IMG/VR virus record: IMGVR_UViG_2740892027_000001 | DNA length: 39,684 nucleotides | Source: a virus | Lineage: Duplodnaviria > Heunggongvirae > Uroviricota > Caudoviricetes | Reading direction: 5' to 3' (one strand) | Shown: piece by piece, positions 1,998-39,684 of the stretch | Layout of the letters: every line of letters begins with the position of its first letter | How positions within the stretch are numbered: the stretch's first letter is position 1 | Translations under genes and position numbers: made by a program | Notes under the pieces: generated by a model | The model's database searches: none | Told to the model about the DNA's origin: nothing | Seen by the model: only the letters and a program-made list of their open reading frames with translations

Positions 1998-4460
1998 TCA
2001 ATTCCCTGTTAATTGCAAAACTTGCTCTTCCAGCTTTTTAACCCTGCGTCTCATCATCGCAGATTCCAGAATCAGAGCCTCTTCATAACGGATACCGTAA
2101 CATTCACCAGCCTCGACGGCTTCGCGTACCAGAACCTTTGTCTGTATAAGTGGGTAAACTCCTGCAGAATGCTCTTCTTCCGTCACATCCCTGTATTCTG
2201 CCGGGGTCTCATTCCACTTGTCATAACAGATAAATGCCAGTCGTGACACATCTATGCCTTCATTCTGAAATACACTGATAACATGCTGCGCAACTGCACC
2301 AAAGTGCCATCTTGCTCCGTCTTTACCTTTCACTTCGATCCTGTCAAGGTACTGGTATGAAACCCATTCCACTCTTTCCCATGCGTCCAGTATTTTCTCA
2401 TCAATAACCTCTGGAGCAGTCTTGAAACGCGCATCGGACAGCACCGTAAACGCTGACTGGGTAAATCCCCCCGACCATGCACGACCAGCCAACCCAAGAG
2501 AATAAGTATTCGTTGTCGATGGTGTCATGGCTGAATCAGAAAACTGTATATATTCTGAATTTCCAGTAGATATTCGAATATTTCCATTTATTAGCGACAT
2601 AGTGCCTTTAGTATTATCACTATTGAATAATTTCAATTGCGAACTTATACCGCCTCCCACAGCCAGAGATACATCGCCTTCAGCAAGCATTCTGAATTTA
2701 TCTGCAGAAACAAGCGTCTGGTTAGCAAGGTTAAAATATTTAACCCACCATTCAAAACGCCCTGACATAGTCCCAACGTACTGACCAAGCGCAGGGACGT
2801 GAACAACATTGCTATTTGTAGTGCCGTCTATACTGGAAATACCAGTCACCGCTGATGCAGAACTCAGAATATTATTTCTGTCACCCGGATGTTTAATTTC
2901 AACAAAGTTCCTGATACACCCTTCCTCGAAGGTAACCACGCCGGAAGAACTATACATGGGGAATATTGACGCATAATTACTGCGTGCAGCATCTAAGAAA
3001 CGAATGGTTGTAGATGTCTGCAGATCTCCTGATTCATTTTTCCCATCACACCCAGTCATTAGAATATTACTGGCAATATTATTATTTCCCTGAACGGTGA
3101 CGCCGTGCGCCTGCTTTGCGTCCGATTCAGAGTAATCAACCAGCACATCCGAAATCAGGTTACCAGTCCCCTTGCCAACAACTACTGCGGCGTATTTTGG
3201 GTTGTTAGCCATTACACTGCTAATGATATTATTCGTTGGGGCAGTTTCCGTCTCAGTTCCATTGTAAACAACGTGCTGACACTCTTCACCAATAACATTG
3301 CTGACAATGTTATATTTTGCTGCTGTTTTAAGTTCCACTGCACCAAACTGAGGATAATTTCTGGCTATCACACCATCAATTAGCGTATTTTGCGATGAAT
3401 CAAAAAGCACACAACCTGCTTTTTTATTATTTGCGAACCCTAAATACTCTCCTCTTATATCTCTAACAATGTAACCTGACGGAATACCATTATTCGGATA
3501 AGCGATCAAGCTAAATCCTGTTCCTCGCGTATTTGTAAATCTGATATTTTTAACCGATACATCATGGCCACCTGAAAATGACACCTGGTGTCCCTGCACA
3601 CTATCATCTGATTTATTTCCCATAATTGTTAGCGTACTAAGCATGCCACCATCGGGCATGTTAAAAACCAGATGATTACCATCTCTGTCATACTGTTTTA
3701 TCGTTCCCCCACCTGTTCCGTACAAGCCACAACGTGAAAGAGAAACTAAAGATGTATTGAATACCCCTTCCGGAACAAAAACACTGCTAAACGAATGTAA
3801 TGATTTTGTAAAAGCATCCTTGTTATCATTTAAGATTCCATTTTGAGCTCCAAAATCCTTAATGCTGACACCATCACGCATCTTATCCTGGAACGTTCTG
3901 TATACCGCTCCAGAACCATACTGAATAAACCAACCAAAACCACCAATAACTCCGGCGATTGCAGCATCGACATAATTACGCATTGAGCGATTATTTACAG
4001 CGTCCTGCTCAAGTGATGGATCGGCAAGGTTAGATATTCTGTTTTGCTTTGCATCGTAATATTTTGCAAGCAAAGATGGTTTCATCAATGCACGTCTGAA
4101 CCACCCAAAACATCGCTGGATCAGCATCGTCAGGTAGTCAAATGCATCCTCATGAACTTCGGGGAAAAATTTTCCCTGATTGCGAAGATCAGTCTCCTGC
4201 ACCACATCAAGCACACGCTCTATCGTGATTCGCCAGCCAGCAGCAAGCGGCGACGGAAGAACCACTGCACCGCCACTATAAGTTCCCGCCCCTGTTACCG
4301 TATAACCAGCATCCAGCACTAGTTTTGTAACGTTACCGTTAAGGTCAGACACCTGAACAACCAGGTCGGATTTTTTGAAAATACGGAAGGTATACGGAAA
4401 TGATGTCGTAACGCCGTTACCTGTGTATTCGTTGTGGTCAACTTCGGTTGAGACCGTCAT
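1998..4460 (-). CDS. Tailspike / tail fiber with beta-helix region and C-terminal intramolecular chaperone (peptidase S74-like) domain
   Basis: 820 aa; central Gly/Asn/Thr-rich repeats typical of right-handed beta-helix depolymerases; C-terminus has the LSDARFK autocleavage-type motif and chaperone-like tail; last structural gene before lysis genes. Confidence 0.8.
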   Translation of the reverse strand: MTVSTEVDHNEYTGNGVTTSFPYTFRIFKKSDLVVQVSDLNGNVTKLVLDAGYTVTGAGTYSGGAVVLPSPLAAGWRITIERVLDVVQETDLRNQGKFFPEVHEDAFDYLTMLIQRCFGWFRRALMKPSLLAKYYDAKQNRISNLADPSLEQDAVNNRSMRNYVDAAIAGVIGGFGWFIQYGSGAVYRTFQDKMRDGVSIKDFGAQNGILNDNKDAFTKSLHSFSSVFVPEGVFNTSLVSLSRCGLYGTGGGTIKQYDRDGNHLVFNMPDGGMLSTLTIMGNKSDDSVQGHQVSFSGGHDVSVKNIRFTNTRGTGFSLIAYPNNGIPSGYIVRDIRGEYLGFANNKKAGCVLFDSSQNTLIDGVIARNYPQFGAVELKTAAKYNIVSNVIGEECQHVVYNGTETETAPTNNIISSVMANNPKYAAVVVGKGTGNLISDVLVDYSESDAKQAHGVTVQGNNNIASNILMTGCDGKNESGDLQTSTTIRFLDAARSNYASIFPMYSSSGVVTFEEGCIRNFVEIKHPGDRNNILSSASAVTGISSIDGTTNSNVVHVPALGQYVGTMSGRFEWWVKYFNLANQTLVSADKFRMLAEGDVSLAVGGGISSQLKLFNSDNTKGTMSLINGNIRISTGNSEYIQFSDSAMTPSTTNTYSLGLAGRAWSGGFTQSAFTVLSDARFKTAPEVIDEKILDAWERVEWVSYQYLDRIEVKGKDGARWHFGAVAQHVISVFQNEGIDVSRLAFICYDKWNETPAEYRDVTEEEHSAGVYPLIQTKVLVREAVEAGECYGIRYEEALILESAMMRRRVKKLEEQVLQLTGN

Positions 4461-23687: not shown

Positions 23688-23764
23688 GTGGCATTAGCTC
23701 AGTCGGACAGAGCAACCGCCTTCTAAGCGGTTGGTCGCAGGTTCGAATCCTGCATGCCACGCCA
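23688..23764 (+). tRNA. tRNA-Arg (anticodon UCU), phage-encoded
   Basis: 77 nt cloverleaf folded by hand: 7-bp acceptor stem GTGGCAT/ATGCCAC, D-arm GCTC/GAGC, anticodon stem ACCGC/GCGGT with loop CUUCUAA, T-arm GCAGG-TTCGAAT-CCTGC, 3' GCCA. Confidence 0.85.
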
Positions 23765-30321: not shown

Positions 30322-31122
30322 TTACTTGATAAATCCTGCCGCCTTTCCCCGCCTGTATTCCTCCATCAGCCACTGCGCCGGTGTTATTCCCCCCAGGGTA
30401 GCGGCGTTAGGCATACACCCGAAACTTCGCCCTGGTGGATGGTAAACGTCTCTCCCTGTGTCCGGAGGCGTACTCATGGGTTCTGGCTTTGCCTGTATGC
30501 TGATCACCGGATCGGGTATCTGCTGTCCGGAAGCCACCTTTTTCGCCCAATCATCGAGCAGCCTGCGCGCGTGTTTCTCAACCTCAATCTCGCTAAGCTG
30601 GCGCTGATACATTGCACGGCGGGTATCACATACGACCCAGTACATAACCGGATGTCGCCACGGGAATCTTTCGGGACCACCAGGATATAAACTTTTTTCC
30701 TTGCTGTACCGGTGAAACTCCGCCATCACATCGTCAATGGTGACGCCAAGAACCATCTTGCTGTCTTTACACCACTTGATGAATTGCCCTGGCGACGGCC
30801 AGAACGGAGACTCACTGGCGCGGGCGTGGCGCATACCAGCAGAAACCTGTTCACGGGTTCGGATCCCCCCTTCGGCAAACGCAGCAATCCACTGCTGTTT
30901 TGCAGCGACTTCCTGCTCTGGCGTCTTCAGGTTGGTTACCACTGCCGCCGGAAACAGTTGTTTCAGCTGTTTGAAAAGGGCATCAACAAGCCTCTCTGCT
31001 GACATGTTCACCACATTGTCATTGTTGACGTACTGATGCTCATAACCTGACATGCGAGAAAGGGCTTCTCCGTCACGGTTTTGTATCGCGGTAAAAACGT
31101 TGTTCACAAGAAATCCTCCCAT
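30322..31122 (-). CDS. Replication protein P-like (DnaB helicase loader)
   Basis: 266 aa; GMRHARASESPFWPSPGQFIKWC and SLYPGGPERFPWRHPVMYWVV match lambda P motifs GMRVARRQNRPFLPSPGQFVAWC and GLYPDAESYPWKSNAHYWLV (recalled). Start codon uncertain because of 19-nt overlap with the O-like gene. Confidence 0.75.
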   Translation of the reverse strand: MGGFLVNNVFTAIQNRDGEALSRMSGYEHQYVNNDNVVNMSAERLVDALFKQLKQLFPAAVVTNLKTPEQEVAAKQQWIAAFAEGGIRTREQVSAGMRHARASESPFWPSPGQFIKWCKDSKMVLGVTIDDVMAEFHRYSKEKSLYPGGPERFPWRHPVMYWVVCDTRRAMYQRQLSEIEVEKHARRLLDDWAKKVASGQQIPDPVISIQAKPEPMSTPPDTGRDVYHPPGRSFGCMPNAATLGGITPAQWLMEEYRRGKAAGFIK

Positions 31123-31937
31123 GCTTCAGGGCTGTTCCAGTGCGGAACGTTGTTATCAGGTAATGTTGATTGCTTCTGTCTGCTAATCTGCAGCCGCCTT
31201 GCCAGCTTCTGCTCCCACTGTGCCTGATGGTATGCCTTACCCTCAGCCATCCAGTAAATTCTGAACTCTGCAAGTTCCTGTGCCGTTGGCAGACTGTCCA
31301 GGTAGATCCCCTGCAATGAGCTTTTCCGAAGAAAGTCATCTGATGGCTGCCATTGTTCATGCATGACAAATTTGCCTAATTGCCCTGGCCCACCAGGAGG
31401 AACAAAGTTATTCATCACGGCGTTGTTTGCGTCGGGGTCATGAGGCACAGAATCCCCGTTTTTTGTCCTGCTCTCCCTCTCTTGGTTAAATGACTGGTTA
31501 TATGACTGGTTCTGGATCCCGTTTTTGGGATCATTCAACATCCCGTTTTTGGGATCATTCAACATCCCGTTTTTGGGTATATTCCCGTTTTCGGTAACAT
31601 TACCGTTTTCGGTAACATTACCGTTTTCGGGTTCATTGCCCCCCTCCCGGTTGCCTTTAATGTTCCCGTTTTTGGTTATATTAAGAGAGAAAACCCGCAC
31701 TCTTTTTGTCGCTCCCTTTCTCTCTCCGGTATCTGAAATAAGCCCCATTTTCATGAGCGATATAAGCCCGGCCTGCACGGTTTTTTTATTCAGACAAGTG
31801 TCTTTAACGAGGCGTTCTATGCTGGGGTAGCAGAGGTTATATTCATCGGCTCTGTCAGCCATCGAGAGCAGTATGAGCTTTAATGACGAGCTACCTGGAT
31901 CTGTCTCCCAGGCCCAATCTGTTGCATGTCTGCTCAT
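31104..31937 (-). CDS. Replication initiator, lambda O-like, with origin iterons inside the gene
   Basis: 277 aa; N-terminal winged-helix-like region; central repetitive peptide NGNVTENGNVTENG...PKNGMLNDPKNGMLNDPKNG encoded by DNA iterons; immediately upstream of the P-like gene. Confidence 0.65.
   Translation of the reverse strand: MSRHATDWAWETDPGSSSLKLILLSMADRADEYNLCYPSIERLVKDTCLNKKTVQAGLISLMKMGLISDTGERKGATKRVRVFSLNITKNGNIKGNREGGNEPENGNVTENGNVTENGNIPKNGMLNDPKNGMLNDPKNGIQNQSYNQSFNQERESRTKNGDSVPHDPDANNAVMNNFVPPGGPGQLGKFVMHEQWQPSDDFLRKSSLQGIYLDSLPTAQELAEFRIYWMAEGKAYHQAQWEQKLARRLQISRQKQSTLPDNNVPHWNSPEAWEDFL
31515..31638. repeat. Replication-origin iterons (six tandem repeats with core CCGTTTT(T/C)GG)
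   Basis: Three copies of a 24-bp unit CATCCCGTTTTTGGGATCATTCAA then three of an 18-bp unit CCGTTTTCGGTAACATTA; a second short repeat ATGACTGGTT x2 at 31481-31510. Confidence 0.65.
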
Positions 31938-33273: not shown

Positions 33274-33294
33274 AACTATAGTTTTCAGCAAGTA

Positions 33295-33317
33295 AGCCGC
33301 CTCATGGCGGCTTTTTT
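33295..33317 (+). terminator. Intrinsic terminator (AGCCGCC-tcat-GGCGGCT + T6)
   Basis: Strong hairpin plus TTTTTT 22 nt after the repressor stop codon. Confidence 0.7.
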
Positions 33318-33330
33318 ATTGCCAGATAGA

Positions 33331-33345
33331 TTACCTTACGGGTAA
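33331..33345. promoter_or_regulatory. Operator-like palindrome TTACC-ttacg-GGTAA
   Basis: Perfect site immediately after the repressor terminator; same 17-mer as at 5991-6006. Confidence 0.55.
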
Positions 33346-33364
33346 TTTTTTTAACTCATATCTA

Positions 33365-33407
33365 TTGACACCAAACCAAATAAGCATAATTATTACCTCA
33401 ACGGTAA
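33365..33407 (+). promoter_or_regulatory. Candidate early-left promoter (consensus -35 TTGACA at 33365-33370) overlapped by operator TTACC-tcaac-GGTAA (33393-33407)
   Basis: Perfect TTGACA; AT-rich CATAATTATT in the -10 region with ambiguous spacing; operator overlaps the -10/+1 region; plus-strand operon starts downstream. Confidence 0.4.
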
Positions 33408-33426
33408 CAGACCGAGGTAACAAGTT

Positions 33427-33576
33427 ATGCAGTGGAAAATCATCAACGGTTGGTACTGCGTTACTGCATGCGGATTCATGAGCTGGAAGTTCCGCACCTT
33501 ACAGGAAGGCATCAAGTGGGCTTTCATCAGCAAAGAAGCTCGCGATGTGGCAAACGATAACGAGATATGGGAGTAG
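33427..33576 (+). CDS. Small hypothetical protein (first ORF of early-left operon)
   Basis: 49 aa (below the track's 60-aa cutoff); GAGG 8 nt upstream of ATG; co-oriented with the downstream operon. Confidence 0.3.
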   Translation: MQWKIINGWYCVTACGFMSWKFRTLQEGIKWAFISKEARDVANDNEIWE

Positions 33577-33584
33577 GTTAGCAA

Positions 33585-34619
33585 ATGAGTGAATTATCAA
33601 TCATCGAAATCACACCAGACATGGCACCAAGAATTTACGTTGAAAAAGGGCTGGAAAAGTTTCTCGAGCAGATCCGTGAAGGTGTTAATGAAGTGCCTGA
33701 CATTAGCACAGACAAAGGCAGAAAGCGCATTGCATCTCTGGCTGCGAAGGTTTCAAGAAGTAAAACAGCGGTAGAAAAACCAGGACGTGATTATCTGAAA
33801 CGCCTGAAAGAACAGCCGAAAGTAGTTGAAGCAGAGTTACGACGCTTCGTAACCGAATGCGATCGGCTTCGTGATGAAGTACGCCGCCCACTCACCGAGT
33901 GGGAAAATGCTGAGAAATTACGCACTGAAGCACTGCAACAACGCCTGACAAATTTGCGAGCACTAGCTGACGTGATCGATCTCTCCGGAAACTACTTGCC
34001 ATCATCTGATATTCAGGAACGAATTCAAGAGGCTAAATCAGTAGCACTTGATGAAAGTTGGCAGGAGTACGCAGCAGAAGCTGGAGTAGCCAAGGATTCA
34101 ACCATCCAGAAACTGGAAGAATCACTCGCAGTAGCTCAAAAACGCGAGCATGAAGCCGCTGAGCTGGAGCGACTTCGCAAAGAAGCGGAGGAAAAAGCGC
34201 GCATTGAGCGAGAAGAGAATATGCGACGGGAAGCTGCTGAACAGGCCAGGCTCGAAGCTGAACAAAAAGCGAAAGCTGAAATTGAGGCTGCGGCACGCCT
34301 GGCGGCGGAAGAAAAAGCACGTGCTGAAGTAGCAGAACGTCAGCGAATTGAAGCAGAGCAGCGTGCACGACGCGAAAAAGAAGAAGCCGTTGCCGAGGAA
34401 CGCCGACGCCAAGAGGCGGCAGAAAAAGCCCGCCTTGACGAACAGAAGCGTATCGCCGACGAAGAAGCGCGCCGAGCTGCAGATAAAGAGCATCGCCGTA
34501 CCGTTAACCGCAGAGTAATCGCAGATCTGATAGCCCAAGGCATTCACGAAGAATTCGCGCAGAAAGCAATGTTGGCTATCGCTGGCGGCAAAGTGCAGGA
34601 CGCGTATATCAAATATTGA
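33585..34619 (+). CDS. Coiled-coil protein with Glu/Ala/Lys/Arg-rich repeat region
   Basis: 344 aa; globular N-terminal about 160 aa then long AEEKARxEAEQ-type helical repeats; upstream of recombination genes. Confidence 0.55.
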   Translation: MSELSIIEITPDMAPRIYVEKGLEKFLEQIREGVNEVPDISTDKGRKRIASLAAKVSRSKTAVEKPGRDYLKRLKEQPKVVEAELRRFVTECDRLRDEVRRPLTEWENAEKLRTEALQQRLTNLRALADVIDLSGNYLPSSDIQERIQEAKSVALDESWQEYAAEAGVAKDSTIQKLEESLAVAQKREHEAAELERLRKEAEEKARIEREENMRREAAEQARLEAEQKAKAEIEAAARLAAEEKARAEVAERQRIEAEQRARREKEEAVAEERRRQEAAEKARLDEQKRIADEEARRAADKEHRRTVNRRVIADLIAQGIHEEFAQKAMLAIAGGKVQDAYIKY

Positions 34620-34626
34620 GGTGGGT

Positions 34627-34926
34627 ATGAACGTTAATCAGCAGAAAAATCTTCAAAAAATCATGCTGGCATTCGACAAGGACTACCGCCTGTCAGAACA
34701 GCTATATGACCGACAAGTTGAACTGATCGATAGCATCCGGCTTCATCAACTGGCCTCAACTTTTGACGCTGTAACAGGCAAAGGAGTTCGCCAGGAAGTA
34801 CTGGAGGCTGCTAAAGACAGCCCTGAGTTCGAAGAACTGATGGATGCCTACCGGCGAGAGGCAATGGCAATTATCGCCCGCTGGGATCTGGCGGATCGGA
34901 TTGATGGGCAGAGGGAAGCGGCATGA
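34627..34926 (+). CDS. Hypothetical protein
   Basis: About 99 aa from ATG 34627 (GAGGTG Shine-Dalgarno); 4-nt overlap with the exonuclease gene. Confidence 0.5.
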   Translation: MNVNQQKNLQKIMLAFDKDYRLSEQLYDRQVELIDSIRLHQLASTFDAVTGKGVRQEVLEAAKDSPEFEELMDAYRREAMAIIARWDLADRIDGQREAA

Positions 34927-35744
34927 AACCGGGAATTTATTTCGACATCAGCAATGAGGACTACCACGCCGGTGACGGCGTGAGTAAGTCGCAACTGGAC
35001 ATGGTTGCCAAGAATCCGGCGCTTCTTAAATGGGTTCAGGCAGCACCAGAAGACGAAGAGAAAAAGTCTGCACTGGATATGGGAACCGCATTGCACTGTC
35101 TGCTTCTGGAGCCTGGAGAGTTCGACAAACGCTTCATTGTTTCACCGAAATTCGATCGTCGGACGAAACAAGGTAAAGCTGACGAAGAGGCATTTCTTCG
35201 TGATGTGGCGGATATGGGGATTACGGTACTTGATGCCGAGCAGTGGCGGAAACTGGAGCTGATGCGTGATAGCGCAATGGCTCACCCGGCGGCACGCTGG
35301 ATGCTGGAAGCCCCTGGTTACTGCGAAGCATCAATGTACTGGAACGATGAAGAGACGGGGGAGTTGTGCCGAATTCGTCCAGACAAATGGCTGAACGAGC
35401 ACAACGTGATCGTCGACGTGAAAAAGGTTGCAGATATGGACCGTTTTGCACGCCACATCGAGGAATTCCGCTACCACGTGCAGGACGCAATGTACCGCGA
35501 AGGCGCAATGAGGGTTACTGGTCAGCCGCATGGTTTTTTCTTTCTTGCCGTGAGCGAAAGCATTGATTGTGGTCGGTATCCGGTACGCGTGTTCGAGCTG
35601 GATGCGCAGGATGTCGATGCCGGGCACGCTCTGTTCCGCCGGGATCTGAATACCTATCACGAATGCCGCATCAATGATGAATGGGGCGGTGTGGAAATCA
35701 TTAAACGCCCTGAGTGGGCACGCAAACAGGATATGTACATATGA
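34923..35744 (+). CDS. RecE-like exodeoxyribonuclease VIII family protein (PD-(D/E)XK exonuclease)
   Basis: 273 aa; IRPDKW...IVDVKKV resembles the D...D/E-x-K nuclease motif; stop overlaps the recT start (ATGA). Confidence 0.6.
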   Translation: MKPGIYFDISNEDYHAGDGVSKSQLDMVAKNPALLKWVQAAPEDEEKKSALDMGTALHCLLLEPGEFDKRFIVSPKFDRRTKQGKADEEAFLRDVADMGITVLDAEQWRKLELMRDSAMAHPAARWMLEAPGYCEASMYWNDEETGELCRIRPDKWLNEHNVIVDVKKVADMDRFARHIEEFRYHVQDAMYREGAMRVTGQPHGFFFLAVSESIDCGRYPVRVFELDAQDVDAGHALFRRDLNTYHECRINDEWGGVEIIKRPEWARKQDMYI

Positions 35745-36682
35745 GCAACGACATCGCAAACATCAACGCACCAGTAGACACAGCAATCGCTGGAACTGCT
35801 GCAACTATTTTCAGCCCAGACGGCTTGAACCAACTGATGAAATTCGCCGAGGTAATGGCGCAAAGCCGCGTAACGGTACCGGCGCACCTCGCCGGGAAAC
35901 CAGCTGATTGCATGGCCGTGGCAATGCAGGCTGCGCAGTGGGGAATGAACCCGTTTGCCGTGGCTCAGAAAACCCATGTTGTGAACGGCACGCTAGGTTA
36001 TGAAGCCCAATTAGTAAACGCAGTTATCTCAACGATGTCGCCAACAAAAGATCGCATCAACTACGAGTGGTTCGGGCCGTGGGAACGCGTGATCGGTAAG
36101 TTTGTTGAGAAAACATCCAAAAACGGCAATCCATATATCGCACCAGGCTGGACTCTAAAAGACGAAGAAGGCTGCGGTGTTCGCGTATGGGCAACCATGA
36201 AGGGCGAGGATCAACCTCGAGTGCTTGAGTTAATGCTGTCTCAAGCACAGGTAAGAAACTCCACACTTTGGGCCAGTGATCCGAAACAACAACTCGCATA
36301 CCTTGCGACAAAACGCTGGTCTCGCCTGCACTGTCCTGACGTAATCATGGGCGTCTACACCCCAGACGAATTACAGGAAACGGCACCGCGCGTTGAGCGA
36401 GACATTACTCCGCAAACGACCACTGCTGCGGGAATGAACAGTCTGATCAACGCTAAACCAGCGAAAAAGCCTGATGAGCAAACGCGTAAAGCGGATAGCC
36501 GTGATCCAGAAGAAATGCTGATGGCCTTTACCAGCGCAGCGATGAATTACAGCACTGTCTCCGAACTGGATAAGGCTTACAAATACATTGCACAAAAACT
36601 TTCAGATGATGACGAACTGCTGGCAAAAGCCACCGACGTTTACAGCGTTCGTCGGGAAGAATTAAACGAAACATCTATGTAA
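35741..36682 (+). CDS. recT: RecT-like single-strand annealing recombinase
   Basis: About 313 aa from ATG 35741, translationally coupled to the exonuclease gene; size and context fit RecT. Not motif-verified. Confidence 0.6.
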   Translation: MSNDIANINAPVDTAIAGTAATIFSPDGLNQLMKFAEVMAQSRVTVPAHLAGKPADCMAVAMQAAQWGMNPFAVAQKTHVVNGTLGYEAQLVNAVISTMSPTKDRINYEWFGPWERVIGKFVEKTSKNGNPYIAPGWTLKDEEGCGVRVWATMKGEDQPRVLELMLSQAQVRNSTLWASDPKQQLAYLATKRWSRLHCPDVIMGVYTPDELQETAPRVERDITPQTTTAAGMNSLINAKPAKKPDEQTRKADSRDPEEMLMAFTSAAMNYSTVSELDKAYKYIAQKLSDDDELLAKATDVYSVRREELNETSM

Positions 36683-36731
36683 CCACCACCGCGGCGCCAC
36701 GCGCGCCGCACTGCAACCAAGAGAGGTATTT

Positions 36732-36980
36732 ATGAAAGGTGCATTAGGTAAGAAGGAACTCCTGGCGGTGGTGCCACTGTCATGGAGCACTATCGACCGT
36801 ATGGAGCGCGCAGGGGAATTTCCTAAACGCTGGTATATCACCGATAAACGCTGCGCATGGAACCGTGATGAAGTTGAGCGTTGGCTTGATGAACGTCAGG
36901 CAGCAAGCCCGGCAGAGTTCCAGGGTAAAAAACCTCCTGTTCAGCAACGTGTATATCGTCCCGTGAGCAACGCGGCATGA
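36732..36980 (+). CDS. AlpA-family HTH protein (excisionase / regulator candidate)
   Basis: 82 aa; LSWSTIDRMERAGEFPKRWYI...WNRDEVERWL matches the AlpA-type pattern S-T-I-Y-R-L-x-x-G-x-F-P ... W-x-x-x-E-V-x-x-W. Confidence 0.6.
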   Translation: MKGALGKKELLAVVPLSWSTIDRMERAGEFPKRWYITDKRCAWNRDEVERWLDERQAASPAEFQGKKPPVQQRVYRPVSNAA

Positions 36981-37089
36981 GTGTGCTGCTAAGGCACTGG
37001 ATCAAATGGTCAGGATGGTACTTATTCCTGGCCTCTGTTTCAGCATGGCTTTATCTGCTGGCATTAATTTTCAGAGAGGGTTGGATTAA

Positions 37090-37389
37090 GTGAGAAAGTT
37101 AAGCCGACTTGAAAAATATCACATGAATAAGGTTTCAATGCGCAGTCCGTCAAAGATTGTCGCCGTTACTCCTGCGGCGATAGAGATCGAAAAACGCGCG
37201 ATTGAAAGAGAGAAAAAAGGGCAGTTCCGCATTGCCGCTCACCTTTGGCTTCAGTGTATGGATGTTGCTTCTGGTGATGTTGAGCGTGCAAGGATCGCGG
37301 TTCGCAGGGACCAATGTATCACAAAAGGTAACGGCCTTCGCCGTGGAGACTATAGCGGTATAGGATGTTGCGGGGTGGTTTGTGACTAA
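37090..37389 (+). CDS. Small regulator-like protein (PerC/ANR-like?)
   Basis: 99 aa; EREKKGQFRIAAHLWLQCMDVA resembles the helical core of small PerC/ANR-type regulators (weak, from memory). Confidence 0.3.
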   Translation: MRKLSRLEKYHMNKVSMRSPSKIVAVTPAAIEIEKRAIEREKKGQFRIAAHLWLQCMDVASGDVERARIAVRRDQCITKGNGLRRGDYSGIGCCGVVCD

Positions 37390-38032
37390 GAAATACACAC
37401 TAATCTATGCAGATCCACCCTGGGTATACCGGGACAAAGCCGCAGATGGTAATCGCGGTGCCAGTTTTAAATATCCGGTTATGAGTGTGATGGATATCTG
37501 CCGCCTTCCTGTGTGGGATTTGGCCGATGAAAACTGTCTGTTGGCCATGTGGTGGGTGCCAACACAACCACTCGAAGCGCTAAAAGTTGTTGAAGCCTGG
37601 GGATTCCGTCTGATGACCATGAAGGGCTTCACGTGGATAAAATGTGGTAGTCGACAACCAGATAAACTGGTTATGGGTATGGGGCACATGACTCGCGCCA
37701 ATAGTGAAGATTGCCTGTTTGCGGTAAAGGGAAAACTACCTACGCGCATTAATGCAGGGATCGTTCAGTCATTTACCGCACCGCGGCTTGAGCATTCAAG
37801 AAAACCAGATATCGTTCGTGAAAAACTTGTGCAATTGTTAGGCGATGTTTCTCGCATTGAACTGTTCGCCAGACAGACGTCTCATGGCTTCGATGTTTGG
37901 GGTAATCAGTGCGAAGACCCGGCAGTGCAACTACACCCTGGATACGCGTTGGATATTGCCGGATTAACAAATGCATTCAGCAATGCTCCGCTGTCACCAA
38001 CAGACAACCAGGGGCGGGAGCGTGCAGCATGA
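37382..38032 (+). CDS. MT-A70 family DNA N6-adenine methyltransferase
   Basis: 216 aa; catalytic DPPW motif (LIYADPPWVY) near the N-terminus; GTG start overlapping the upstream gene. Confidence 0.8.
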   Translation: MTKKYTLIYADPPWVYRDKAADGNRGASFKYPVMSVMDICRLPVWDLADENCLLAMWWVPTQPLEALKVVEAWGFRLMTMKGFTWIKCGSRQPDKLVMGMGHMTRANSEDCLFAVKGKLPTRINAGIVQSFTAPRLEHSRKPDIVREKLVQLLGDVSRIELFARQTSHGFDVWGNQCEDPAVQLHPGYALDIAGLTNAFSNAPLSPTDNQGRERAA

Positions 38033-38223
38033 ACAGGGCATCACCAGCAGATTTAAGGAAATGCCTTGAAACTGCAAACATGCTTGCACACAGCGGGATC
38101 AGGTTTGTTCCAATTCCCGCTGTCACTGATGCTGAATTTGCAACGCTGTCAGCAATATTCGCAGACAAAATTGAATCACTGGCAGCAGAAGCCGAGATGG
38201 AAGAAAATCAGCAGAACTATTAA
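38029..38223 (+). CDS. Small hypothetical protein
   Basis: 64 aa from ATG 38029, which overlaps the methyltransferase stop (ATGA); last gene of the plus-strand operon. Confidence 0.45.
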   Translation: MNRASPADLRKCLETANMLAHSGIRFVPIPAVTDAEFATLSAIFADKIESLAAEAEMEENQQNY

Positions 38224-38226
38224 ACG

Positions 38227-39477
38227 TTATTCTCCCGCCATCCACTTCTCAAACTTCGACGGGGAGAACGGAATCAGATCCGTATGCTCCCCGTCAATCC
38301 AGGAATCAATCATATCTGCCCACTGCTGCAACATGTAGGCGCGCTGTCTGGCGTATTCCGCTTTGTTATATACGGCGCGCACACCTTTCTGCTCATGTGC
38401 CAGAGCCTTTTCAATCCAGTCTGAAGGATAACCAGCCTCATGCAACAACGTACTGGCTGTACGGCGCATATCGTGTACGGTGAAGTCCTGAATATGCTCA
38501 CCATCTTCATTTATTATTTTCACCGTTCTGTCGATCAGTGAGTTCAACGCGGCATTAGATAATGGCTTCCGGAAATTGTAACGACCAGGAACCAGGTATT
38601 CACTTCCACCAGCGCACATCTGCAACCCAACCAATATATCCTGTGCTTGTTTAGGCAGGTAAATAACGTGCGCCCGGCTTCCCTTCATGCGGTCTGAAGG
38701 AATTGTCCATGTCCATTTTTTAAAATCTATTTCATCCCACGTTGCATTGGTGAATTCGCCTTTACGAACCATAGTGATAAGCACCAGCTTTAAAGCCATT
38801 TTCATAGTGCCCATAGCACCAATGGCATCCAGCGTGCGGAAGAACAGACCAATTTCTTCTGGTGTCAGTGTTCGCTCTCGTGGTTTAAATATGGCGATAG
38901 ACGAAGGTTTAATGTCAGCCGCAGGATTAAACAAACCATGACCACGGTCATTGGCATGACGGTATACGCTGCTGATGATCTCCCTGGCCTGCACTGCTGT
39001 TGCCAGGCCGCCGCGTTCGACAATCCGGTCACACAAATCACGAACCATCGATGTGGTAATTTCAGTCATCATTTTGTTGCCAAGAACCGGAAGTATGTCA
39101 CGGTCGATCACCGCCTGCTTCATTGCGCGGGTACTGTCAGCCAGGATGACATGTTTCATATAACTGTCGGTATGTACCGCAAACGTCTCGGCACCACGAA
39201 TCTTTTTGATACCGTCACGTTTAGCCGCAGCCGGTGACTGGCCTGCTTTAAGCAGCTTCTTTGCAGCAATCAGTTCTTCTCGCGCTTCTGCCAGGCTGAT
39301 ACCGTCACGCCCATACTGCCCGATTACCAGTGTTTCGCGGCGACCGTTGATACGGTAGTCATAGCGAAACGAGACCGTGCCTGACGTAAGCACAGCTACA
39401 TACAGCCCGTCACGATCGGAGACCTTGTACAGTTTGTCCTGCGGCTTGAGGTTTTTTAATTTTGTATCGGTAAGCAC
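38227..39477 (-). CDS. int: Tyrosine integrase, P4-type (N-terminal arm-binding domain)
   Basis: 416 aa; N-terminal LTDTKLKNLKPQDKLYKVSDRDGLYVAV...FRYDYRINGRR arm-binding domain; C-terminal catalytic region with HDMRRT and terminal Tyr; next to the right att repeat. Confidence 0.9.
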   Translation of the reverse strand: MLTDTKLKNLKPQDKLYKVSDRDGLYVAVLTSGTVSFRYDYRINGRRETLVIGQYGRDGISLAEAREELIAAKKLLKAGQSPAAAKRDGIKKIRGAETFAVHTDSYMKHVILADSTRAMKQAVIDRDILPVLGNKMMTEITTSMVRDLCDRIVERGGLATAVQAREIISSVYRHANDRGHGLFNPAADIKPSSIAIFKPRERTLTPEEIGLFFRTLDAIGAMGTMKMALKLVLITMVRKGEFTNATWDEIDFKKWTWTIPSDRMKGSRAHVIYLPKQAQDILVGLQMCAGGSEYLVPGRYNFRKPLSNAALNSLIDRTVKIINEDGEHIQDFTVHDMRRTASTLLHEAGYPSDWIEKALAHEQKGVRAVYNKAEYARQRAYMLQQWADMIDSWIDGEHTDLIPFSPSKFEKWMAGE

Positions 39478-39519
39478 AATTCACCCGTATAGAAACCATT
39501 TTCATGACGGTATGAGAGT

Positions 39520-39534
39520 ATACCTTTAAGGTAA
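39520..39534. promoter_or_regulatory. Operator-like site ATACC-tttaa-GGTAA upstream of int
   Basis: One mismatch to the TTACC-N5-GGTAA consensus; 43 bp upstream of the integrase start codon. Confidence 0.45.
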
Positions 39535-39588
39535 TACCGTCACCTGTACCGCCGAAAAATATGGTGTAGAGTGAATAGAAATGAATAC

Positions 39589-39622
39589 ATAAAAACAAAA
39601 ACCCTCTGTAAAAACAGAGGGT
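39589..39622 (-). terminator. Strong intrinsic terminator on minus strand next to the right att repeat
   Basis: ACCCTCTG-tttta-CAGAGGGT hairpin followed by TTTTTGTTTTT on the minus strand. Confidence 0.6.
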
Positions 39623-39667
39623 TGAGTTAGTATCTGAATAGGAATGACTTGCTATGAGTTAGCTGTT

Positions 39668-39684
39668 AATCATTCCCACTCAAT
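39668..39684. repeat. Right attachment-site core (attR); 17-bp direct repeat AATCATTCCCACTCAAT
   Basis: Identical to 1-17. Confidence 0.75.

Follow-up and report, generated by a model that had tools for sequence, protein, structure and literature searches.

A solitary MT-A70 family adenine methyltransferase, with a probable GATC target, in the early-left operon of a phiV10-like Escherichia coli prophage

What does an adenine methyltransferase do in a temperate phage that carries no restriction endonuclease beside it, and what does it methylate? The question is raised by a locus near the end of the window, by which we mean the whole stretch of viral DNA that was analysed, 39,684 nucleotides long (IMG/VR record IMGVR_UViG_2740892027_000001). 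The window is a phiV10-like (Uetakevirus) E. coli prophage; positions 36600–39684 share 98% DNA identity with Escherichia phage phiV10, typing phages 9 and 10, TL-2011b and other Uetakevirus genomes. The 842 bases of the locus (37382–38223) recur at at least 95% identity in 539 of 5426 complete E. coli genomes (about 10%). In almost every case the copy is chromosomal; in E. coli LS45 the prophage adjoins guaA. The probable answer, argued below, is that the gene encodes a solitary class beta (MT-A70) SAM-dependent N6-adenine DNA methyltransferase, expressed from the early-left operon, that mimics Dam in its GATC target.

Two overlapping genes near the end of an early operon

Where does the gene begin and end? 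The original prediction placed one gene at 37382–38223. A predicted MT-A70 family (class beta) N6-adenine methyltransferase gene is indeed there on the + strand, but the extent was wrong, for it spans two genes in different frames. The methyltransferase gene, with a GTG start and 216 amino acids, occupies 37382–38032; the last 195 bases (38029–38223) belong to a second gene, of 64 aa, that is read in another frame. The annotations of phiV10 and RefSeq give exactly these boundaries, the RefSeq CDS being 651 nt long. The 216-residue protein begins MTKKYTLIYADPPW. Its start codon is GTG in the window copy, whereas every relative examined has ATG at the same position. This fixes the start of the methyltransferase, and marks GTG as a change specific to the window copy, one that may lower its expression.

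Small open reading frames overlap the gene on both sides, as had been predicted. The upstream overlap of 8 nt (GTGACTAA, 37382–37389, + strand) holds the start codon of the methyltransferase gene and the stop codon of a PerC-like gene. The downstream overlap of 4 nt (ATGA, 38029–38032, + strand) joins the methyltransferase stop to the start of an Orf63-like gene, whose Shine–Dalgarno sequence, GGGAG, lies 8 nt 5' of the ATG. The two overlaps support the suggested translational coupling to the neighbours: translation of the methyltransferase would be coupled to that of the PerC-like gene upstream and of the Orf63-like gene downstream. The upstream gene encodes a PerC-like small regulator (Pfam PerC, E = 6e-7; PHROG 868 'transcriptional activator', E = 5e-61). 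As its longest open reading frame it occupies 37090–37389 on the + strand; phiV10 and RefSeq annotate shorter starts, giving 267 and 252 nt.

What role might be played by the downstream gene? Its 64-aa product (38029–38223, + strand) is a homologue of the exo-xis-region protein lambda Orf63, or DUF1382 (PF07131, E = 1.3e-30), and matches the solved structure PDB 8dsb at E = 6e-13. In lambda, orf63 (31005–31196) is annotated as DUF1382 and lies between exo and xis; the window gene likewise lies between recombination genes and int. Identity to the lambda protein is about 50%, and the lambda gene has no methyltransferase gene next to it. Overlap with the methyltransferase gene in both the window phage and Stx phage PA8, in which the product of the downstream gene is 49% identical to the 64-aa protein, had given rise to the idea that DUF1382 is a dedicated partner of the methyltransferase. 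We rejected this idea. DUF1382 stands beside the methyltransferase gene in none of 40 species-level loci and is found in lambda and many phages without a methyltransferase; its homologues occur in 372 phage records, mostly lambdoid, many of which lack any methyltransferase. The gene at 38029–38223 belongs to the exo-xis region; its genomic slot is the one in which the methyltransferase gene also lies, and it does not encode a subunit of the enzyme.

From where are these genes transcribed? The probable head of the operon, at 33294–33393 on the + strand, combines a terminator-like hairpin (33294–33313), 3' of the repressor gene, with a sigma-70-like promoter site (33365–33393; 10 of 12 matches); phiV10 carries an annotated terminator at the place equivalent to the hairpin. 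A scan of the + strand from 33393 to 38223 for promoters and terminators made no further call, and the operon ends at 38223. The methyltransferase gene had been placed at the end of the early-left operon; it does lie near that end, but as the penultimate gene and not the last. Transcribed from this position, the protein would be made after infection or induction and not in the repressed lysogen.

A conserved catalytic domain without a restriction partner

Is the product a methyltransferase? It matches the Pfam MT-A70 profile (PF05063) at E = 1.1e-22 and 81.2 bits, against a cut-off of 23.9, with residues 5–176 covering profile positions 1–172 of 172. It also matches PHROG 359 'DNA methyltransferase' (E = 4.8e-120) and the PADLOC type II MTase model (E = 4.6e-78). 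Catalytic motif IV, DPPW, seen in the translation and in a motif scan, lies at residues 11–14 (37412–37423, + strand). The original description of a DPPW-motif methyltransferase thus holds, the motif being accompanied by a match to the full-length profile. Its place near the N-terminus gives the permuted motif order that is required for class beta amino-methyltransferases of the MT-A70 family. An alignment of 36 homologues has 47 invariant columns, among them W14 and the C-terminal WGN; D11 and P12 are nearly invariant. A C-terminal block, ELFAR...WGNQ, is present and aligns with solved MT-A70 enzymes, and within the 36-homologue alignment E160, F162, W173, G174 and N175 do not vary.

The solved relative closest in sequence is the Tetrahymena DNA methyltransferase MTA1 (E = 2e-13), with which a residue-by-residue alignment reaches residue 171; METTL3 follows at E = 4e-6. 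The AF2 model has a pTM of 0.73 and a core pLDDT of 80–93. Confidence is low for residues 17–24, 97–105 and 200–216, with pLDDT below 50 in the last of these. Foldseek matches the model best to human METTL3 (E about 1e-13) and Tetrahymena MTA1 (rmsd 3.1–3.7 Å), with TM-scores of about 0.6–0.66. Measured against homologues 83–89% identical in protein, pN is 0.08–0.10 and pS 0.72–0.76 (saturated), for a dN/dS of about 0.05. The open reading frame is a real gene under purifying selection and not a chance one.

The C-terminal tail (residues 188–216; 37943–38032, + strand) behaves differently. It begins where the alignment to PA8 gp5 ends, at residue 187, and such tails vary in length and sequence almost locus by locus among the 40 species-level homologues. 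Tail type does not covary with the type of upstream gene, long and short tails both being found beside an adjacent PerC gene. A DNA alignment of the 3' junction of the methyltransferase gene was uninformative as to the origin of the tail.

Does the gene have a restriction partner? It was predicted to have no adjacent endonuclease gene, and it has none. Its neighbours are the PerC-like gene, the Orf63-like gene and a P4-type tyrosine integrase gene (38227–39477, − strand; Pfam Arm-DNA-bind_3, Phage_int_M and Phage_integrase), which is convergent to it. Further upstream of the PerC-like gene come genes for a 38-aa membrane protein, an AlpA-like protein and RecT. The annotation of the whole phiV10 genome likewise contains no nuclease partner. 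A motif scan of the window found no amino-methyltransferase motif in plausible open reading frames besides the DPPW at 37412–37423; a DPPF at nt 30862 falls in a 103-aa open reading frame that we judged to be antisense noise. Only one of the larger open reading frames of the operon is without annotation: that of 344 aa at 33585–34619, which matches PHROG 1376 (unknown function) and has no Pfam or PADLOC match. We considered it as a hidden restriction enzyme; phiV10 and the LS45 prophage lack it yet have the methyltransferase gene, and it is therefore no cognate partner.

The same holds across the family. No cognate endonuclease of the kind that a type II restriction-modification system would have is present at the locus, and none recurs in the 40 species-level loci. 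The PDDEXK_5 and HNH/NUMOD4 genes found upstream in three of the relatives (loci L006, L011 and L009) resemble homing-endonuclease insertions and are absent from the window. Prophages from many genera of Enterobacterales carry homologues at 56–86% identity, in differing slots: the early-left end in Uetakevirus, the nin region of P22-like phages (between NinB and NinD), a place after the lysis genes, and one near int in Stx phages. At 60–86% identity they stand alone in the last three of these slots. The neighbours are correspondingly diverse, among them RusA, NinB, DUF1317 (lambda orf60a), a C5 methylase and homing-endonuclease-like PDDEXK_5 or HNH genes.

What does the enzyme methylate?

If there is no restriction enzyme to protect against, what is the target? 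The roles first suggested, protection against restriction and altered host gene expression, were generic; relatives suggest either GATC methylation of DNA or partner-dependent methylation of 16S rRNA. Three members of the family methylate GATC in DNA. M.EcoGV of E. coli O104:H4 does so in vivo when over-produced (PMC10810198) and is listed as GATC by PacBio in REBASE-based tables (PMC6602927). PhiBZS1_p32, an MT-A70 protein of Serratia phage BZS1, renders plasmid DNA in dam- E. coli resistant to MboI and sensitive to DpnI, and M.EfaBMDam, the MT-A70 enzyme of Tn1549, is GATC-specific (PMC7556043). The probable link of the window protein to this group runs through gp5 of PA8 (M.EcoPA8orf6770P), with which it is 83% identical over residues 1–187 (156/187, E = 8e-125). 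The two have the same variant of the variable loops at residues about 86–100 and 124–131, namely the short loops KCGSRQ-DKLVMG and NAGI-QSF, and PA8 gp5 is itself described as highly similar to M.EcoGV (PMC10810198). Judged from this literature on homologues, the target is most likely GATC, in which case the specificity of the host Dam would have been copied by an enzyme unrelated to Dam. Specificity for GATC is proven for BZS1 p32 and M.EfaBMDam; for the subgroup of the window it comes through M.EcoGV, which two secondary sources (PMC10810198, PMC6602927) assign to this family. The window neither avoids GATC nor is enriched in it (159 sites against 161 expected), so its composition lends the specificity no support either way.

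What might a second GATC methylase be for? Its probable role would be to maintain full GATC methylation of fast-replicating phage DNA, and incidentally of the host's DNA, when host Dam runs short. Full methylation would give protection against methylation-sensitive restriction that cuts GATC, and would blunt host processes that depend on hemimethylation (MutH, SeqA). PA8 gp5 raises spontaneous prophage induction in a DPPW-dependent manner (Gong, Chakraborty and Koudelka, PMC10810198); Dam-like over-methylation could explain this phenotype equally well, an interpretation of ours that goes beyond that paper. It counts against the GATC reading that in a dam+ host there is nothing obvious to be gained from mimicking Dam, and those who described such phage Dam-like enzymes call their role not understood (PMC7556043).

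This bears on how activity should be sought. A new m6A motif in lysogens had been proposed as the criterion. It is an unsuitable one, since host Dam already methylates GATC if that is the target; in dam+ hosts such a search would be blind, and even a fully active enzyme would yield a false negative. The lysogen is also the wrong state for a methylation test, because there the early operon to which the gene belongs is repressed.

Could the enzyme act on RNA instead? With an N-terminal His tag, PA8 gp5 has almost no activity alone on dam- DNA in vitro; with PNB-2, the product of its upstream gene, it forms a 1:1 complex that prefers 16S rRNA, and its C-terminal tail (~27 residues) is suspected of binding PNB-2 or of being needed for the holoenzyme (PMC10810198). 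By this model the window protein would be the catalytic subunit of a PA8-like RNA methyltransferase, inactive or non-specific by itself, that a small co-translated partner, PerC-like and not PNB-2, directs to 16S rRNA so as to modulate translation and prophage induction. The identity to gp5, the 8-nt overlap of the upstream gene with the methyltransferase start, and a fold closest to METTL3 agree with it. So does the recurrence of PerC-like open reading frames, the only neighbour to recur: 14 of 46 methyltransferase loci have one, in every case upstream on the strand of the methyltransferase gene. In six of the 14, drawn from Uetakevirus-type and from unrelated backbones, it abuts the methyltransferase start. 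We nevertheless consider an RNA target unlikely. Many homologues stand alone, without an upstream regulator; of the eight Uetakevirus-type loci, the window alone has PerC directly next to the methyltransferase gene, the other seven having further genes between the two; three family members methylate GATC in DNA; and the rRNA claim comes from a SAM-consumption assay, in which the modified base was not identified (PMC10810198). The window holds no homologue of PNB-2 or of PNB-1 (best E = 1.7 and 1.2, by tblastn for PNB-2), BLASTP gives no alignment of PNB-2 to the PerC-like protein, and the tail suspected of binding PNB-2 is a different one. Three features that can be read from sequence would mark a PA8-type 16S rRNA holoenzyme; a homologue of the catalytic subunit is present, while the PNB-2 gene and the C-terminal ~27 residues are absent, so that the rRNA reading fails on two of the three.

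The PerC-like protein might have a related but separate part, as a dedicated, co-translated partner that gives a latent Dam-like enzyme a new target, either RNA or particular promoters. The grounds are the 8-nt overlap and the fact that two unrelated phage backbones have the pair in the same arrangement, and we hold the suggestion to be very doubtful. The PerC-like proteins are 25–37% identical to each other, their methyltransferases 66–69% identical to the window enzyme. PerC-methyltransferase fusions (P0002 and P0005, with 2–3 sequences each, 96–98% identical to the window protein) were set aside as Rosetta-stone evidence, since they are most simply explained by indels at the 8-nt overlap. 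Were the partnership real, the PerC-like protein would be the analogue of what PNB-2 is in Stx phages and of what METTL3 and MTA1 have as accessory subunits, and 'PerC + MT-A70' would be a two-gene epigenetic or epitranscriptomic switch in about 10% of E. coli genomes.

Might the enzyme methylate DNA at sites other than GATC, or with relaxed specificity, and so give the broad protection against restriction that the original prediction implied? Its putative recognition loop (residues about 86–100) differs from that of the HK639/BZS1 type by a 23-residue indel and has at least two variants among close homologues. Non-specific phage adenine methyltransferases belong to a different Pfam family, which counts against the proposal. 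Relaxed-specificity phage adenine methyltransferases such as M.EcoGII are known (PMC7544214), but the window protein has its short-loop variant in common with PA8 gp5, an enzyme reported as highly similar to M.EcoGV and hence to a GATC enzyme, and the methylomes of strains with M.EcoGV homologues contain no extra motif (PMC6602927). A target other than GATC, or a relaxed specificity, thus seems to us quite unlikely. Least probable of all, in our judgement, is a silent passenger, an intact gene that is not meaningfully expressed or active and is carried in a recombination-prone accessory slot. The GTG start where all relatives have ATG, the description of M.EcoGV as weakly expressed (PMC10810198), the existence of IS629-disrupted and truncated copies (PMC10810198; P0008, P0026, L040) and a highly mosaic slot with homing-endonuclease-like inserts in relatives would fit it. 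Strong purifying selection does not, nor do the catalytic residues, kept in all 36 aligned homologues, or the abundance of nearly identical copies in complete E. coli genomes, and a DPPW-to-APPA mutant of PA8 gp5 loses its measurable phenotype (PMC10810198).

Relation to known systems

How new is the gene? Public annotation already covers the gene, the family to which it belongs and its orphan status; in this respect it is ordinary. PhiV10p33 of phiV10, the 'putative adenine methylase' of TL-2011b and RefSeq WP_016245502.1 ('MT-A70 family methyltransferase') are the same gene, at 96.8–98.6% protein identity, and in E. coli LS45 the DNA of the methyltransferase gene is 100% identical except for the first base. 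The order PerC-like gene, methyltransferase gene, DUF1382 gene, integrase gene is common to the window, phiV10 and RefSeq. The phiV10, TL-2011b and RefSeq entries differ in their ATG start and are annotation-only records. The discovery value is therefore small, the more so as relatives at 83% and 45% identity have been published.

In PA8 too the methyltransferase gene lies near int and is followed by an overlapping Orf63/DUF1382 gene. The two loci differ in backbone (Sepvirinae in PA8, Uetakevirus in the window), in the upstream gene (PNB-2, a 143-aa winged-helix protein, in place of the PerC-like one) and in the C-terminal 20–30 residues, which are unrelated, divergence being complete after residue 187. 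What value the gene retains lies in a disagreement in the literature about this enzyme family: by one account it methylates GATC in DNA, by another it methylates 16S rRNA in dependence on a partner and raises the induction of Stx prophages. The window copy, without PNB-2 and very common in E. coli, offers a clean test case for the catalytic subunit alone.

With METTL3 and MTA1 the phage protein shares the fold and the DPPW catalytic motif. Those enzymes are obligate heterodimers with an inactive paralogue and have accessory proteins; the phage protein is a bare catalytic domain, and no paralogue is encoded. PhiBZS1_p32, HK639_35 and M.EfaBMDam belong to the same Pfam family and, like the window enzyme, are solitary. 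HK639_35 (YP_004934065), to which PhiBZS1_p32 is reported to be 75% identical (PMC7556043), has 45% identity to the window protein and occupies the same recombination-to-integrase slot; in both HK639 and BZS1 (the latter from PMC7556043) the methyltransferase gene is an early-region gene close to the one for the integrase. In the HK639 type, an insertion of 23 residues lengthens the loop that follows residue 86. The window copy would also be a test case for the question of why a second GATC methylase is so common among the temperate phages of enterobacteria.

Possible origin of the methyltransferase tail

What might be the source of the long C-terminal tail of the methyltransferase? In the window the tail, with its NAPLSPTDNQG motif, is encoded at 37943-38032. 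A near-copy of this motif, NAPLAPTDNQG, is found in a Kluyvera prophage, towards the end of a 54-aa ORF (locus L008, 4591-4755) that is distinct from the methyltransferase gene and lies 3′ of it; the methyltransferase there is shorter, at 197 aa. The comparison suggests a deletion fusing the two genes as the source of the long tail. Evidence for recombination within the methyltransferase gene itself comes from P0057, a methyltransferase of Enterobacter hormaechei. This protein is chimeric, with an N-terminal half of the HK639 long-loop type joined to a C-terminal half and tail of the type seen in the window, so that the exchange would lie between these two subtypes.

The start codon of the window gene is GTG (37382-37384, + strand). 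At the homologous position phiV10, E. coli LS45, the Stx phage PA8, HK639 and nine further homologues have ATG. Because ATG is present in every homologue compared, the GTG start is a change specific to the window copy, one that may reduce translation of the methyltransferase.

Genes flanking the methyltransferase

In 14 of 46 loci the methyltransferase gene is preceded, in the same orientation, by a PerC-like ORF (window 37090-37389; loci L003-L041), which in six of the 14 lies directly against the methyltransferase start. The loci with this upstream ORF belong to two unrelated phage backbones, and a C-terminal YSGI motif is conserved in the PerC-like ORFs. In related prophages (loci L006, L011, L009, L004, L007 and L008, at about 3400-4000, upstream of the methyltransferase) the gap between the two genes is filled by homing-endonuclease-like genes of the PD-(D/E)XK (PDDEXK_5) or HNH/NUMOD4 type, or by a DUF1317, lambda orf60a-like gene. 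The slot between PerC-like gene and methyltransferase appears to be a hot spot for insertion.

Other genes are annotated under matches to window 36600-39684. In the epsilon15-like Salmonella phages SPN1S, SPC32H and SPN9TCW (H20-H24) there is a DGQHR-domain (DndB-like) gene, together with the methylase and the integrase, as read from annotation lists. The lists for PAS61 and BP9 show a Ser/Thr phosphatase gene under this match.

On the downstream side, only 3 nt separate the end of the Orf63-like gene from that of the convergent integrase gene (window 38223-38227), and a scan for terminators between the two called none. Given this spacing and the lack of a terminator call, early-left transcripts would be predicted to read through into int in the antisense direction. 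Elsewhere, the phage genome contains a tRNA-Arg gene with anticodon TCT (23688-23764, + strand).

The early-left operon compared with phiV10 and LS45

The early-left operon includes, on the + strand, a 344-aa ORF (33585-34619) of PHROG 1376 (unknown function), for which Pfam and PADLOC searches returned no match. Two small ORFs stand in its place in phiV10 as well as in the LS45 prophage. In the window a RecE-like exonuclease (DUF3799/PDDEXK; 34923-35744, +) and RecT (35714-36682, +) are distinct, overlapping ORFs, whereas in phiV10 RecE-RecT is annotated as a single 586-aa fusion. LS45 differs again, with a YqaJ and RecT pair whose sizes are unlike those of the window's pair. These differences reflect either a mosaic recombination module or a frameshift in one of the records.
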